The notes under the pieces are model-generated. The model ran no database searches. It saw only the letters and a program-made list of their open reading frames with translations, and was not told the DNA's origin. Source: Chiloscyllium plagiosum (taxonomy: Eukaryota). Taken from it: a stretch of 64,000 bases of DNA. Below, piece after piece: positions 29,721 to 59,468 of this stretch. The position numbers were made by a program, and so were the translations under genes. Position 1 is the first letter of the stretch. Every line of letters starts with the position of its first letter. Location of the stretch: the NCBI RefSeq assembly GCF_004010195.1, contig NC_057725.1:28153912-28217911 (forward strand). The letters run 5' to 3'.

Positions 29721-29940
29721 AGAGAAAGTGAGGACTGCAGATGCTGGAGACCAGAGTTGAAAAATGTGGTGCTGGAAAACACAGCAGGCCAGGCAGCATC
29801 TGAGGAGCAGGAGAATTGATGTTCCGGGCATAAGCCCTTCTTCGGGAAGCCTGAAGAAGGGCTTATGCCAGAACCGTCGATTCTCCTGCTCCTCGGATGC
29901 TGCCTGGCCTGCTGTGTTTTCCAGCACCACATTTTTCAAC
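29721..29940. mobile_element. Fold-back PLE terminal-repeat insertion (two inverted HHR-bearing arms) with 14-bp TSD
   Basis: TSD tgagatgaacacta at 29707-29720 and 29941-29954; arms 29756-29846 and 29850-29940 are reverse complements around a 3-nt loop. Confidence 0.88.
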
Positions 29941-32785
29941 TGAGATGAACACTATCAAACCTACACCATTCCTGCTATCCTTTTTTTTTAAATCGAATGC
30001 ATAGCGTCAACCTGGTTGCATTCTGGATGGATCATTTTGCAATAACCAGCAGTTGATATTGGGAATCCTGCCAGGCCAACCAGCTGCTTCTGTCTGTGGG
30101 CTTGAGCTGATCCACGCCTCTATCCTAATGTACACCTGACTCCCTTCCTCCATGTACTCTCTGTTCACTGACTTCCAATCCCCAATTTTGTTTCTTGTTT
30201 AAAATTCTCACCCTTGTTCAAACCACTGTGGGTTATGTTCTCCATATTTTTGTAACCTTCCAAGGTTTGCACTCTTTCCTCAGTCAAGGTGCTTCTTTAA
30301 AATCAATCGACCGCTTTGACCAAGCCTTTGGTCACTAAAATCTCTAATACCTACTCTAATGTCTCCAGTTTCTTGTCACCTTGTCTGATTTATGCTCTTG
30401 GAACGTTCTTTAAAATAGGAAAAGAATTTAGAAAAAGGTGCCGAACATTCATATTTGCCTACTTTTTTGGTATTTTGAACCACTTACAAATAAATGTGAA
30501 GTATTAAAGTTCACCAGAAATACTTTTTGGGGAAAAAAAGTGCATTCAAGCTAGTAAGGCACTAAAATTACACTAAATCCTGGTTGTCTTCTCACAGCTT
30601 TGAGAAGACAATGTCTAAGAGTTTTACCCCATGCTTGGGCAGCAATAGCGGTCTGACCTTTAGGCTCAACTCTGACATCTGGAGGCCAAATTTAAAGAAA
30701 ATAGTTTGGTTTGGGAATACTTCACCATTTTTGTTTTGCTTGTATTTTCATTTTAAGGATCAATCCATGTCTGTTGTGATGAGCTGTAATAGGCTGTCAG
30801 CTGGCAGCAGACCTTTTTCAAGGCCTTGGACTCTCTGTTTACCACTTTGCTTTCCCGGTTATTGGCAAAGATTCAAATTCTGCAATAGTTGCATTAAATC
30901 CTTAACAGACTTTCTGCCAGGGTGAAAGTGTTAATAAATGAAAGTTGTTGTATTTTGAAGAGTAGAAAGTCATCATGGTATATAGGGTGCCATCTTTCCT
31001 CAACCAACATTTGCCTGATAATGCACCTTCTTACTGTGGCATATTGCAATGTATTTTCCTTGTCTGCACCTAACAACAGTTGCTAAAATAAAAAGTGACA
31101 TGTTATGTTTTGAGTTTTTTTTGTGTCATTTGAATGATAGAAAAAGATGCTGTTATCAATATTTTAGCTTTCTGGTTCAGTTCTATTGGCAGACTCCAGT
31201 AAATGATGCTTTGCCTGTGAGTTTGACTGTTTCTGTCTTTCACCATTTCACCCAGTGGGTTTAATCAACAGCATACTAAAAATTTATATCTGCCTGGAAA
31301 AGATTTAGAGAAACCTTTTTTGTTCATATTGTTTCCTGCAATTTGCTGGATAACTAATAGATTGCATCTTGCTGACTACAAACACCTTTAGTGTTTTTTT
31401 GTGTGTACAGATTTCAGCATACCACATCTTTTGGTTCTGTGTATGTTCTTCATTGCTCTAACTTTTTTTTTTCCTTTCAACAAAATGGAACATTGCTCCA
31501 TGCTCTTTGAAATTTCAGGTCTCATTCCTTTTTTAATGGTTTAGATCTGTGTTTTGATCTGAAGGGTTCAAAAAGTTGATGTTTGATTAACAGCATCAAG
31601 TTTAAGACTGTCTGGAGTCATGTTGATGAACATCTTTTAAAAGATGTGGATATTTGGGGAATTGTGGTTTTAAAAGATGTATAATTCTGAGTTGGGAATT
31701 GAAAGGAGAAAAGAAATGCAGCCCAAACAGGCCATTCAGCCCAAATGTTCCATGCTGATATTTATGCTTCACATAAGTCTCTTCCCATCCTACTTCATCT
31801 CACTCTATTGATCTTTTAAAGAACTGTATTAGCCAGTATATGGTACATCAAATACAATGTGCTGCACGGCTGATCTCTATATCCTTTACCCAATTTGCTT
31901 GGACATGTTGTACAATAAATAAATGCCATGACGTAATGTGTTATTAGATGCATTCTGAAAACATTTTAACCCAAAGTACTTCTGTGCAAACCACTGTGCT
32001 TTCAATTGACGTTAGTTCACATAGATTTGAGGACGAAGTTATCAGTTACCTTCCCTGTTCTTTCAGAATAAGAATATGGTCTTTCACCATACACAATCAG
32101 AATATGTGAGGTAACTTTATTTGCAGAGGAATGTTTTTTGGTTTGGGAAAATTTATACCTAATTGACAAATCTCATAAAAATCCTGAGGTCACTTGACCC
32201 ATTTAGCTCTTACTACAATCAGCAGTTAAGAATTTTTGCATTTTGCCATCAGAACATCTGGTTACCACATGACATGTTTGGGTTTCCTGTTGATCATCTG
32301 TGGTATTGATCAATCCTGCATTTGGCAACAGGCTTTCTAGCATCCAACTTTTCTTGTGTCATTGATGTGAAGAGATGAGTGGTTTATGTATTCTCTTTGC
32401 GCAAACTCTCTTGGCCTGAATTCTCTTGGTCTTGAATAAAGATCCCACACGCCATCAAATTTTACAGAAGTCAGAAAGGTATTTTACCAGAATATTTTCC
32501 CTTACTAGGACACCAATCTGCAACTCTATGGTATCTTTTAATGTAGGTTAAAATATTCCATGGTGTTTCACAAAATCTTTTACTAAAGCAGCATTTGACC
32601 CTGACATTTTTTTGACGTCTGTAATCGCCAACGAGAGATTTCAAGGGGCATAATAAAGAGAATAGGTCACAAGGCAGAGAGGTTAAGGGAGGGATTTCCT
32701 GACCTTCAAGACCCTTGCAACTGAAGGCATGGCCCCCAATGGTGGGAACATTAATATTGAGGTTCTGTAGGAGTCCAGGAGTAGA

Positions 32786-43991: not shown

Positions 43992-44880
43992 AGTTTCCGG
44001 CATAGGCCCTTCATCAGGAACGTGGCGGGGTGGTGGTGGGGCTGGGGGAAGGTAACTGGGAAGGTGATATTTAGATACAGGTTGGGGATAATAGTGAGAG
44101 GTCAAGGGGGAGGATGGAATGGAAGGTGGACAGGTCAAAAGGGCAGTGCTGGGTTGGGTCTGGGATAAGGTGGGGGAGGGGAGATTTGGAAATTAGTGAA
44201 GTTGATGTGTAGTTGAAGGGTCCCAAGGCAGAAGATGTGTTCTTCCTCCAGTTGTCGGATGGCTTGGATTTGGAGGTGGAGGAGGCCCAGAACCTGTATG
44301 CCCTTGGCAGAGGGGGAGTAGAGGTTGGCCACAGGGTGGTGGGCTCGTTGGGTGTGTCCCTCAGATGTTTCCTGAACCACTCCACAAGTTGGCATCCTGC
44401 TGCCCCAATGTACAGGAGGTCACATCGAGAGCAACAAACGCACTCGCTGAGGTGTGTGGATGTGCGGGAAAATCTCTGGATGTGAAAAGATCCTTTTTGG
44501 GGCCTTGGACGGAGGTGAGGGGGAGAAGTGTGGGTGCAGGTTTTACACCTGTTGAGATGGCAAGGGAAGGTCCAAGAGTGGAGGGTGGGTTGGCTGGGGG
44601 TGTGGACCTAAAGAGGGAGTCATGGAGGAAATGGTCTCTGCAGAATGCTGATAGAGGTGGGGAAGGAAAATACCTCTAGTAGTGGGGTCTGATTTGTAGG
44701 TGGCAGATATGATGGAGGATAATGCGCTGCACCCAGAGATTAGTAGTGGGGTGAAAGGTGAGAACTAGGGGGTTCTATCCTTGTTGCAGTTGGAGGGATA
44801 GGGTTCAAGGGCGGAGGTGAGGAAGTGAGGAGATGAGCTGGAGGGTGTGGTTGATCATGTGAGAAGGGAAATTGCAGTGG
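43992..44880 (-). mobile_element. Neptune-type PLE 3' portion (GIY-YIG end and terminal repeat with HHR remnant)
   Basis: ORF 44135-44395 HPVANLYSPS..IQVLGLLH..IRQLEEEHIFCLGTLQ; minus strand 43992-44020 TTCCTGATGAAGGGCCTATGCCGGAAACTT. Confidence 0.85.
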
Positions 44881-56267: not shown

Positions 56268-57678
56268 GTAAGCTCCTAATTTGAGGAAAATGATGGTGTT
56301 TGTAATCTTGTAGCATCTTTTCACAACTTCAGGACAGTGTCTTTCCTCCAATTAAGTACTTTGAAATAATATAATATCAGGAACATGGTCACCAATTTGT
56401 GGGAGGAGATAATATTGACTAGGTAAATTGTATTCTCTTCGAATATTGCGATAGAATTTCTTCAGTTAACCTGAAGATAAAATGGCCTTAGTGTTTGAAT
56501 GTCACATCAAGTCTGACTACTTTTTTCCCCTTTTTAAGTCTCAAGAGTTGGCCACCTGCACCAATAAGCCTTTGTGACTCAGTCAATATTTAGGGTAGGG
56601 ATAGCCCAAATTCCGAATGCTGCTTATGAATTTGCATAGAATGTTTGGCTACGTTTAAAGGTGCTATATAAATGAAGCTCTTGTTTGATATATTCCCACA
56701 TGAGAGCAAGGGGCAAGCTGTTTAGCCTAAGAGGTATGTTTTGAAAAAGTACCTTTAAAGGGGCAACGGTGAGACAGGAATGTTTAGGGAGGAAATTCCA
56801 GAGCTTGAGGCATGGGTGGCTGAAGGCACAGCTGTCAATAATAGTACAAATGGAAATGGAGGGTCTGCAAATGATTTAAAAATCAGAGTGCAGATTTCCT
56901 GGAGGCTTGTGAAACTAATCTCCGGAGTAGGTCATCTTTGCACTGGCATATGTTTATTTCCACAGCCTATAAATACAATATGTATACCAGGTTCGATTGT
57001 GGGCCCATTGTGACCCCAGAAGTCATGGCAATATGTGTCCGCTTGTGCAGAATGACTGAAAATATTGGTATCATGGCCATTCTAATAAGTGCTGTTATTC
57101 CCTTTAACATGTATGTTTACAAACTGTGCTTCCTGAAGTGAAATGGTTTCAATATTTGCCTCATTAATGTGGTATTTTTGTAAATTTGTTTTTACATTGG
57201 GCAGTGGACACTTCCTTTTAGACGCAGGTTGGGTGATGGGAGTCCCTGAGTCTGTCTGTCTGTCTGTCTGTCTGTCAATATTTGCTGGGTTCTCCTCTGG
57301 AGAAGTTGGAAAATATTGCCTTTAACTGTGGCATCACACAGATTTGTGAGAGATAAATATTTCACTGGTCTTGGCAGAAAACACTATAATTCAAAGAAAT
57401 TAAATCACATTTTGGAAGAAAGTGCTTAAAAAGGGCTGCTTCCTTTGGCAACCATTTGGACTCCATTTAAGCATATATTGTAGTAAGTTGGGCAAAATTG
57501 GCCTCGCAATTGGGAGAATCAGTAACCAGTGGATGCAGACTTAAAATAATAAGAACTGGGTTGCAGCTGAGTGTTTAGGCAGAGAGGAGAAAGTGAGGTC
57601 TGCAGATGCTGGAGATCAAAGTTGAAACTTTATTGCTGGAACAGCACAGCAGGTCAGGCAGCATCCAGGGAACAGGAG

Positions 57679-57714
57679 ATTCGACGTTTCGGGCACAGGC
57701 CCTTCTTCAGGAAT
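57679..57714 (-). ncRNA. Minimal type I hammerhead ribozyme motif, copy 1
   Basis: Minus strand ATTC-CTGAAGA-A-GGGC-CTGT-GCCC-GAAA-CGTC-GAAT; predicted cleavage 3' of the C opposite 57683. Confidence 0.75.
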
Positions 57715-57998
57715 GAGCAGAGAGTGTTCAGCAGGAGAAGATAAAAGGTAGGGAGGAGGGACTTGGAGGAGGGGCGTTGGAAATGTGATAGGTGGAAAGA
57801 GGTTTATAGAAGGGAAGGTCGAAGGTAGGTTAGAGGAAGGAGTTGTAAATAATGGTTAGTTAATTATTCTGTTATACTTTATGAAATAAAGTTGTTAATT
57901 TTTACTTTAAATAGTTCTTGGCCACTCGATGTTTACAGATTACTGCACAGGATAAATGTTTTTTGTGTTGCTGGTTTTAAATTAACCATGTCGTAACA

Positions 57999-58212
57999 CC
58001 CGAGTTCAATCCCACTCTCGGGTGACTGCGTGGAGTTTCCGTGTTCTCCCTGTGTCTACATGGGTTTCCCCTCACAGTCTAAAGATGTGCAGGCTCGGTG
58101 GATTGGCCGTGGAAAATGCAGGGTTATAGGGATGGTGTGGGATGCTCTTCAGAGGGTCAGTGTTGACTTGATGGGTTGAATGGCCTTCTTCCACACTGTA
58201 GGAATTCTAAAC
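57999..58212 (+). mobile_element. Diverged HE1-like SINE fragment inside the cargo
   Basis: cccgagttcaatcccac..gtggagttt..tgggtttccc..cacagtctaaagatgtgcagg..ttccacactgtaggaattcta. Confidence 0.75.
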
Positions 58213-58641
58213 AATCCCTTGTGTCAATTTTTTTTTCTAACCTCACCCATTATATTTTGTGTGATTATTAACCAGTTAAATCCTGTCAGTATTCTCTTAC
58301 TGATCAATATAAATGGGCTGTCATTCTTTATAAACAGACAAACAAGGAACCGTGGAGTCACTCTGCCATTCCAGTCTGATCCCCTGTTCAATCAAATCAT
58401 GGCTGGTCTGATTTTAACCTCAAACCTACATTCCATCTTATACCTGATAATTCAAAGCACACCACAGAAACAGGCCCTTTGGCCCACATAGCCTGTGCTG
58501 ATGCATGACACCTTTGTAAACTAAAAACCTTTTGCCTCTGCGCTGTCCGTATCCCTCTATTCCTTGCCTATTCATGTATCAAAGTTGAAACTTTATTGCT
58601 GGAACAGCACAGCAGGTCAGGCAGCATCCAGGGAACAGGAG

Positions 58642-58677
58642 ATTCGACGTTTCGGGCACAGGCCCTTCTTCAGGAAT
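58642..58677 (-). ncRNA. Minimal type I hammerhead ribozyme motif, copy 2
   Basis: Identical 36-nt motif; predicted cleavage 3' of the C opposite 58646. Confidence 0.75.
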
Positions 58678-58887
58678 GGGCAGAGAGTGTTCAGCAGGAG
58701 AAGATAAAAGGTAGGGAGGAGGGACTTGGAGGAGGGGCGTTGGAAATGTGATAGGTGGAAAGAGCTCCATCCTACTCCGACCTATCACCCTCACCTTGAC
58801 CTCTTTCCACCTATCACATTTCCAACTCCCCTCCTCCAAGTCCCTCCTCCCTACCTTTTATCTTCTCCTGCTGAACACTCTCTGCTC

Positions 58888-58923
58888 ATTCCTGAAGAAG
58901 GGCCTGTGCCCGAAACGTCGAAT
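58888..58923 (+). ncRNA. Minimal type I hammerhead ribozyme motif, copy 3 (host-gene sense strand)
   Basis: Stem I ATTC/GAAT, core CTGAAGA 58892-58898, stem II GGGC/GCCC, GAAA 58912-58915, GTC with C at 58919. Confidence 0.75.
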
Positions 58924-59468
58924 CTCCTGTTCCCTGGATGCTGCCTGACCTGCTGTGCTGTTCCAGCAATAAAGTTTCAACTTTAGGCAGAGAGGAGTTC
59001 AGGTCTGGATGCATTACCTTTAACGGGCAGTTGAAGCAGATTCAATCATAACATCCGAAAGGGAATTGGGTAGCATTGTGAAGGGACTGAGTTGGACTAG
59101 CCATGTCATAGCCATGATACTGGCCAATTAATCTTCTGAATTAGAATATGCATTCTCTGATTACGTGGGCAGCTGTATTGATGAATAGAAAGGCAATAAT
59201 GTATTCTGTTATAAAATATTTCTCTTTCTTGTCTCTGTGTCACTTATGCCTCCTGTCCCCAAACTGATTTGTATTTTCCCTTTTGCAAATTTATGTCTTG
59301 AGTTTTCTCTTCTGGGATACATACCATGCATATTTTTGTGTTGTTTGGAGTTATTTGAACCCCTGTTTGCATAACCTTACAGATTAAGTACCGACATACC
59401 TGAATTTTTATTGCAGTAAAGTAGCCAGAGTTTCCAGAGGTAATGCACAATGGACATCAATGAAAAAG

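Follow-up and report, generated by a model that had tools for sequence, protein, structure and literature searches.

Host DNA held between the pLTRs of a PLE is a layout already known (PMC3846280; restated in PMC6431247), and an antisense template has been proposed for it in the Discussion of PMC3846280. For PLEs provided with an endonuclease (EN+), one-sided tails are described in qualitative terms by PMC8557442, where a CX2-5CxxC linker, located between reverse transcriptase (RT) and endonuclease (EN), is given as a feature of Neptune/Nematis. The making of tandem and inverted PLE insertions is called undefined in the same paper and unvalidated in PMC11167929, which reports that an anole PLE, in vitro, cuts and extends both strands, with two start sites flanking the tail, and predicts a dimer. 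Minimal type I hammerheads, of the kind found here, are described for PLE pLTRs in PMC4209133.

The window analyzed here, a stretch of 64,000 nt from Chiloscyllium plagiosum, contains an insertion with this layout. A preliminary description had presented it as a composite unit, built from three ribozyme-bearing PLE repeats and a cargo, that moves as a whole. Comparison with its siblings shows instead one host donor, a junction fixed on the pLTR side, a variable far end, separate TSDs, one tail per two-ended insertion and a register between cargo length and the position of coding sequence pieces.

Anatomy of the insertion

The target is the 3' end of an old LINE, whose left part (57511..57573, + strand) corresponds to positions 68-154, and whose right part (58998..59083, +) to positions 141-244, of a profile built from 56 LINE 3' ends at fetched loci. 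The LINE is presumably CR1, and names such as HE1 or HER1 may apply to the old repeats. The insert is bounded by an exact 16-nt direct repeat (57574..57589 and 58982..58997, both +), whose edges overlap the element ends: since TTT on one side and GAGGAG on the other also match these ends, the TSD is 13–16 nt long, with ambiguous edges. When the insert and one TSD copy are removed in silico, the flanks are collinear with the LINE profile across the joint (16.6 bits, E 1e-4; best of 200 shuffles, 0.3 bits). The rejoining is shown by the profile alone: plain blastn does not show it, and single-sequence nhmmer gives weak alignments only. The single TSD, the rejoining of one old LINE end, and the positions and strands of the repeats, all previously noted, are confirmed.

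The left arm, R1 (57590..57803, -), is a 5'-truncated pLTR, ending in a tail of about 30 nt (57590-57617), which the other two repeats lack; it is read as cDNA primed at the left nick. R1 meets the cargo with no microhomology. The cargo (57804..58577, +) corresponds to 774 of the 1,436 nt of a host leader, found in the donor at C23:53033075-53033848 (the + strand of the window being the - strand of C23). It is a mosaic of old repeats, in which no coding potential is seen, and carries the family allele at 58540. A 4-nt microhomology between donor and pLTR end (58578..58581, +) marks the fixed junction of the family, with 46 exact matches. The inner arm, R2 (58578..58767, -; first given as 58578-58764), is a tail-less pLTR, with a cargo-linked marker base at 58679. 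The outer arm, R3 (58765..58984, +), is a pLTR in sense orientation, whose end coincides with the tail-less start site, and is read as the start of first-strand synthesis. R2 and R3 meet head-to-head in a hairpin junction, indicated as type B (58754..58777), which has 44 exact matches in the genome, 6 of them with the cargo of the window.

The three repeats, as reported before, are nearly identical: over the shared part, R1 differs at 1 site from R2 and at 1 from R3, while R2 and R3 differ at 2. Each holds, by pattern and fold, a minimal hammerhead core (57679..57714, -, in R1; 58642..58677, -, in R2; 58888..58923, +, in R3), featuring the conserved core, an extra base before stem II, a G-C closing pair, a palindromic helix III and a short stem I, as in the minimal type I (PMC4209133). 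Rfam, at gathering level, gives no hit in the window, and the 3' part of R1 folds no better than shuffled sequences (z 0.06). By eye, no family joint falls at the hammerhead cut site, and self-cleavage, as a dimer or with protein, may be seen as a candidate activity. For R2/R3, Rfam searches at E <= 10 returned hairpin-shaped miRNA models only, all below thresholds, and a miRNA identity was rejected.

Transcripts of the R2/R3 region (58581-58984) would fold, on either strand, into a hairpin of about 190 bp, a possible source of small RNAs. Older PLE remnants are also present in the window: an inverted pLTR pair (29722-29941, about 80% identical to the young family) and an ORF fragment (44269-44878, 69–75%).

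The cargo family and its donor

A donor locus, for which a search had been suggested, is found on C23, from position 53033075 onward: here the cargo has native flanks of its own and no adjacent pLTR. Only one base distinguishes the donor from the copies, and it is common to all the copies reaching it (45 out of 45). The cargo had been described as heavily diverged; this is true in respect to other copies of its repeat families (65–92% identity), but not to the donor, to which it is 99.87% identical. A 187-nt portion of it is found, among 40 scored matches, at 30 places with 100% identity over the full length, window included. The cargo/R2 junction has 46 exact matches, all of which were examined, against none for the reversed control.

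In these 46 copies (family 1), cargo length ranges from 16 to 1,436 nt, always anchored at R2. Eighteen copies stop at the 1,436-nt ceiling; the 28 below it feature 27 different lengths. Of the ceiling copies, 15 run into N and 3 continue in three different ways, none with a poly(A) at the ceiling; a shared upstream part may still lie beyond it, given the copies that end in N, although the three clear ones differ. Beyond the cargo, an antisense pLTR arm is present in 9 of the 46 copies, a 5'-truncated sense ORF piece in 13, flanking or other sequence in 9, and N in 15.

In a related organism (run X10) the donor is collinear and at single-copy depth. In run X1 the cargo is at single-copy depth (8.5–9.6), with an unbroken contig across the junction, and the donor is empty; in run X4 its depth is about twice that of the flanks (18–24 vs 6.5–16), with a contig break near the junction, a signal within noise. 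These donor data indicate that the donor is ancestral, and the burst recent and not common to all animals. Two other animals have no copies or few. In a 2% sample of RNA run X21, 6 reads match at 99% or above. No RNA set is listed as containing the donor, which says nothing about its expression.

No source element is present at the donor, either in the assembly or in run X1, nor was any source allele, promoter or transcript seen; the source may have been lost or be polymorphic. Near the donor, no host exon was recognized among 139 open frames over 40 kb, a search by which short exons would be missed; these frames yielded only LINE-type domains and two sub-threshold matches. Cargo 1 shows no splicing, and hence offers no proof of an RNA stage. 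The far-end ceilings of the cargos are sharp, and no RNA start is seen at the ceiling.

The marker base of R2 is found in 23 of the 28 scorable inner arms of family 1, in none of the 76 arms of family 2, described below, and in no outer arm; it is also present in 7 type B loci where cargo 1 does not adjoin. Four family-1 copies lack it in R2.

Some loci depart from the common anatomy. In L021 the cargo features another junction, where a partly tailed pLTR is joined at cargo position 14. In L009 an antisense tail and an ORF-start piece take the place of the outer arm. In L029 a tandem duplication takes in the tail and about 50 nt of the right flank. L037, L039, L043, L044, L054, L055 and L062, all of type B, have the family-1 marker base and no family-1 cargo, and their inner arm ends at one same base, in hammerhead stem II.

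A second cargo and further leaders

A 30-mer from a second cargo has 298 matches. At L157:1130-4045 this cargo is about 2.9 kb long, and starts at a (GT)n run; a SINE-like repeat is found within it, as is an older PLE hairpin. Its donor was searched and not found. The 76 distinct copies examined (family 2) share the anatomy of family 1, and in 32 of them a 5'-truncated sense ORF piece lies beyond the cargo. The far end is at about 2,916 nt: of 30 loci, 9 are gap-free and continue into different sequences, 19 run into N and 2 stop just short. Six older copies (L164, L168, L171, L176, L192, L193) share this far end and the first 1.2 kb, and finish, with flanks of their own, at an older-subfamily sense pLTR embedded in cargo 2. 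Judging from these sequences, one leader appears to have been used by two PLE generations.

A further leader, with arm variants of its own, is linked to the type D hairpin in L213, L215, L217, L230, L235, L237 and L238, and is probably the native source of D. A third passenger, apparently the decayed endonuclease region of an old PLE, is common to L022 and L157, to the left of their main cargo, so that single insertions can hold two cargos. In L181 the left arm consists of part of cargo 2 in inverted orientation, adjoining a full-length copy of cargo 2.

Hairpin junctions, TSDs and tails

Exact hairpin junctions recur in the genome, with 29 matches for type A, 44 for type B, found in the window, and 310 for type D, and each of the three types occurs with both cargos. 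Part of the ORF, in antisense, lies within type D, which is also marked by a private base (26 out of 27) and, in 7 of the 30 loci sampled, by a leader of its own; D therefore derives from a source and was transferred onto other cargos by recombination. One of three leaders is present in 17 of 30 B loci and in 17 of 30 D loci. The assortment of cargos and hairpin junctions is that of templates which recombine.

A TSD of at least 9 nt is found in 73 of the 116 scorable copies of both families (22 out of 45 in family 1). Its length is 13–18 nt if the insertion has pLTR ends on both sides and 9–17 nt otherwise (p 2e-4); the 36 two-ended sibling insertions are all in the 13–18 nt range. Twelve gap-free copies of family 1 have no TSD.

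The tail follows a strict rule: in all 35 insertions where each TSD adjoins a pLTR end, it is found at exactly one end, left in 17 and right in 18, and none has two tails or no tail. Three copies with antisense left arms, not classable, are left out of this count. With hairpin types C (12/12) and H (30/30) the tail is always on the right, so that for these types the right end is not freely chosen; with type A, in family 1, the right end mostly lacks it (11/13).

The driver element

The RT of the driver features DKG and YIDD in overlapping natural pieces, and is joined to the same pLTR. RVT_1, on a partial piece, gives E 9e-7 and 29.2 bits, just under the cut-off of 29.6. The C-terminal EN is of the GIY-YIG type (PF01541; 22.9 bits, cut-off 22.6), with a CCHH motif recognized by inspection, and directly precedes the pLTR, as seen in L123, which spans EN into pLTR. 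A C-X4-C-X2-C linker between RT and EN, present in L037 and L123, points to a putative assignment to Neptune/Nematis. Direct and inverted pLTRs, an optional tail and a TSD are all present, as in EN+ PLEs. A full-length copy of the driver was not found.

Register between cargo path and ORF re-entry

Where a sense ORF piece is present (45 copies), the longer the hairpin plus cargo, the farther the ORF joint lies from the pLTR start site (Spearman 0.82; 0.84 in family 1, n=13; 0.83 in family 2, n=32). In 33 of these 45 copies the ORF is entered 216 ± 32 nt (mean, sd) beyond the length already synthesized, with a slope of 1.04. The band considered lies 150–290 nt ahead (135-nt band), and at most 17 copies fell within any such band in 20,000 permutations. 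The idea of a register came from the first loci; among those fetched after it arose, 7 out of 10 fit. The register holds for 33 of the 38 paths shorter than 1,450 nt and for none of the 7 of 1,450 nt or more; by family, it holds for 7 of 13 copies in family 1 and 26 of 32 in family 2. Outside both families, 3 out of 5 gap-free copies conform: of the 13 rows of this test, 8 span N, one clean row (L063) is likely a chance word match, and L209 was added separately.

Among the 33 in-band copies the offset tracks hairpin length (r 0.89), a value somewhat favored by the selection. As 39 of the 45 ORF joints share only 0–2 bases, homology does not set their place. The left arms of 30 copies never exceed the path plus 240 nt. 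By eye, the offset of about 210 nt does not shift with tail status; the mechanism proposed below does not account for it. Two polymerase sites, advancing in step on two templates, are the simplest reading of the register.

Proposed mechanism and alternatives

The view of the window insertion as young, non-coding, PLE-made and arrived in one event is supported, as is the idea that host DNA was taken from elsewhere, here from C23, with template switching involved. We consider it probable, without being certain, that each insertion was built anew by a young PLE, endowed with RT and GIY-YIG domains, from several co-packaged templates. The protein would nick both target strands about 14 nt apart and prime synthesis on both, at the tail site and at the tail-less site. 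The strand primed at the right nick would copy R3, cross the hairpin junction, copy R2 and continue into host DNA. Its template would consist of an antisense pLTR preceded, on the 5' side, by a 1,436-nt host leader, and would most likely be a read-through transcript of a source allele not represented in the assembly. Homology between pLTRs would let the strand hop between hairpin templates, with junction type and cargo assorting as a result. Meanwhile a second active site, in a partner subunit, would be reading the coding RNA, keeping pace from a position about 210 nt further on. At the end of synthesis, the cargo strand would be joined to the trimmed left-primed strand, R1 in the window; alternatively, it would take over the coding RNA at the position of the partner, or be joined to the flank.

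The fixed pLTR-side end, the graded far end with its ceiling, the sense ORF pieces beyond and the six older copies fit synthesis in the order R3, R2, cargo, and a template with host sequence on the 5' side of an antisense pLTR, as PMC3846280 had proposed. We infer that the template was RNA. The mechanism also agrees with the in vitro data on the anole PLE (PMC11167929). Against it stand the partial reach of the register and its unexplained offset, the right-hand tail of all type C and H copies, the ceiling copies ending in N, the four family-1 copies whose R2 lacks the marker base, the 12 gap-free family-1 copies with no TSD, the probable homogenization of the assembly, and the fact that no source allele, promoter or RNA was seen.

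The alternative that survives best, though unlikely, is ordinary 3' transduction, in which read-through from a sense PLE located at the donor would extend into 1,436 nt of flank, and the left-primed strand would jump to this RNA and meet the right-primed strand at the hairpin. With sense RNAs only, this accounts for the window insertion and for those copies (9 of 46) whose left arm is antisense, and the fixed junction does resemble a normal tail-less 3' end. The sense ORF pieces beyond the cargo (13/46, 32/76), however, need extra steps, there is no reason why cargo length should predict ORF position, the three clear ceiling copies lack poly(A), and for cargo 2 the six older copies show the opposite polarity. 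Transduction, advanced in the preliminary description, would run here in a direction opposite to the ordinary 3' kind, with the fixed end on the pLTR side and the far end truncated.

A DNA template is slightly less favored still, and again improbable. It could be a free cDNA or an extrachromosomal copy of the source; or a single polymerase could replace part of a finished first strand, with the register reflecting aligned templates rather than a dimer. The unspliced cargo 1 and the lack of RNA evidence are in its favor, as genome data give polarity, not chemistry. Abundant transcripts, in contrast, fit better with 46 plus about 298 events, from two loci and with sharp far ends, and the joints without homology also speak against DNA.

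It is very unlikely that the picture is an artefact of a short-read graph, re-using paths and so creating copy number, identity and cargo-hairpin pairing. The assembly, on which all results rest without long reads, is gapped, with 101,977 contigs and N runs at places resembling graph branches, and probably homogenized: the cargo sequences, 42.9 kb and 79.8 kb, are free of variants, while 20 kb of arms contain 11. Identity is thus probably inflated and pairing errors are possible; the depths in runs X1 and X4, single-copy with an unbroken junction contig and about twice the flanks, respectively, are compatible with an artefact. Dating from sequence identity was rejected on account of homogenization. 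Yet 73 of 116 copies are surrounded by TSDs which, like the far joints, are specific to each locus; a single local joint provides both cargo length and ORF position; and random pairing would erase the correlation between offset and hairpin length (r 0.89).

Even less credible, and already largely refuted, is a fixed non-autonomous composite, R1-cargo-R2-R3, retrotransposing whole. The recurrent hairpin junctions (29, 44 and 310 matches) do show that some templates were copied often, and a secondary master is likely for the four copies with the other arm haplotype. A count of whole-composite copies, however, finds 46 that share the pLTR/cargo junction and only one, that in the window, with its R1/cargo joint. 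Cargos vary from 16 to 1,436 nt (27 lengths in 28 sub-ceiling copies), there are three kinds of left end, of which the antisense pLTR accounts for just 9 of 46, and the R2/R3 junction is of at least four recurrent types: the copies do not share one internal structure. Independent PLE insertions around resident DNA, finally, have nothing in their favor beyond the age of the cargo's repeats, and are refuted by the one TSD enclosing all, the flanks rejoining as one LINE end, and the other native flanks of the cargo on C23, collinear in the related organism.

Construction anew from co-packaged templates, our preferred reading, may be extended, tentatively, to a more general model. The PLE RNP would be a two-template dimer, whose sites start flanking the tail, advance in step and swap strands without homology; inverted pLTRs would largely come from a few hairpin or antisense read-through RNAs, recombining via pLTR homology, by which host leaders would have spread to hundreds of loci in one recent lineage.

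Host leaders act as barcodes on the antisense template, and report polarity and length in hundreds of natural products. The copies record the travel of the enzyme on two templates at once, and so provide a natural test of PLE replication; the prediction that the ORF is re-entered about 210 nt beyond the path made is testable with the existing in vitro system. If the model is right, PLEs capture host DNA as a matter of routine, as a side effect of a few source loci rather than by rare accident, and this can add dozens to hundreds of kilobase-sized insertions by which individuals differ.

Comparison with known systems

In full-text searches, which took in few subscription papers, neither multi-copy PLE transduction families nor the register nor recombining hairpin templates were found to be reported.

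Non-LTR retrozymes, as presented in bioRxiv 10.64898/2026.07.22.740005, are likewise non-coding, PLE-derived and provided with type I hammerheads. They are head-to-tail tandem units, whereas the window element is inverted and dispersed, and contains host DNA; instead of two or more consecutive tandem hammerhead units, its repeats are inverted or 963 nt apart.

SVA transduction groups, in the account of PMC12593883, share with the present element a host sequence that serves as barcode for a single source and, putatively, a source missing in some individuals and 5' transduction that begins at upstream starts. SVA, in contrast, is L1-driven and poly(A)-primed, on one continuous template; here there is no poly(A), an antisense arm is present and several templates are involved. 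The source element expected at the origin in SVA/L1-type 5' transduction is absent: the donor is empty.

Canonical EN+ PLEs, as outlined in PMC8557442, have in common with the present element an inverted 5'-truncated copy, a 30–40-nt tail, often one-ended, the CX2-5CxxC linker, as in Neptune/Nematis, and trouble in short-read assembly. Here, on the other hand, the tail rule is strict (35/35) and the inverted arms trace to few leader-bearing source templates.

The anole Poseidon PAc (PMC11167929) shares the two start sites flanking the tail, the cutting and extension of both strands, and the predicted dimer. It belongs to another clade, and the main text of that paper describes no second template, hairpin formation or coupled progress.

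Closest in layout is the PLE of Adineta vaga (PMC3846280), where host DNA was captured between Penelope pLTRs, as in the window. The captures described there are single events; here they are 46 plus about 298, with graded lengths, a ceiling, one identified donor and an ORF register.
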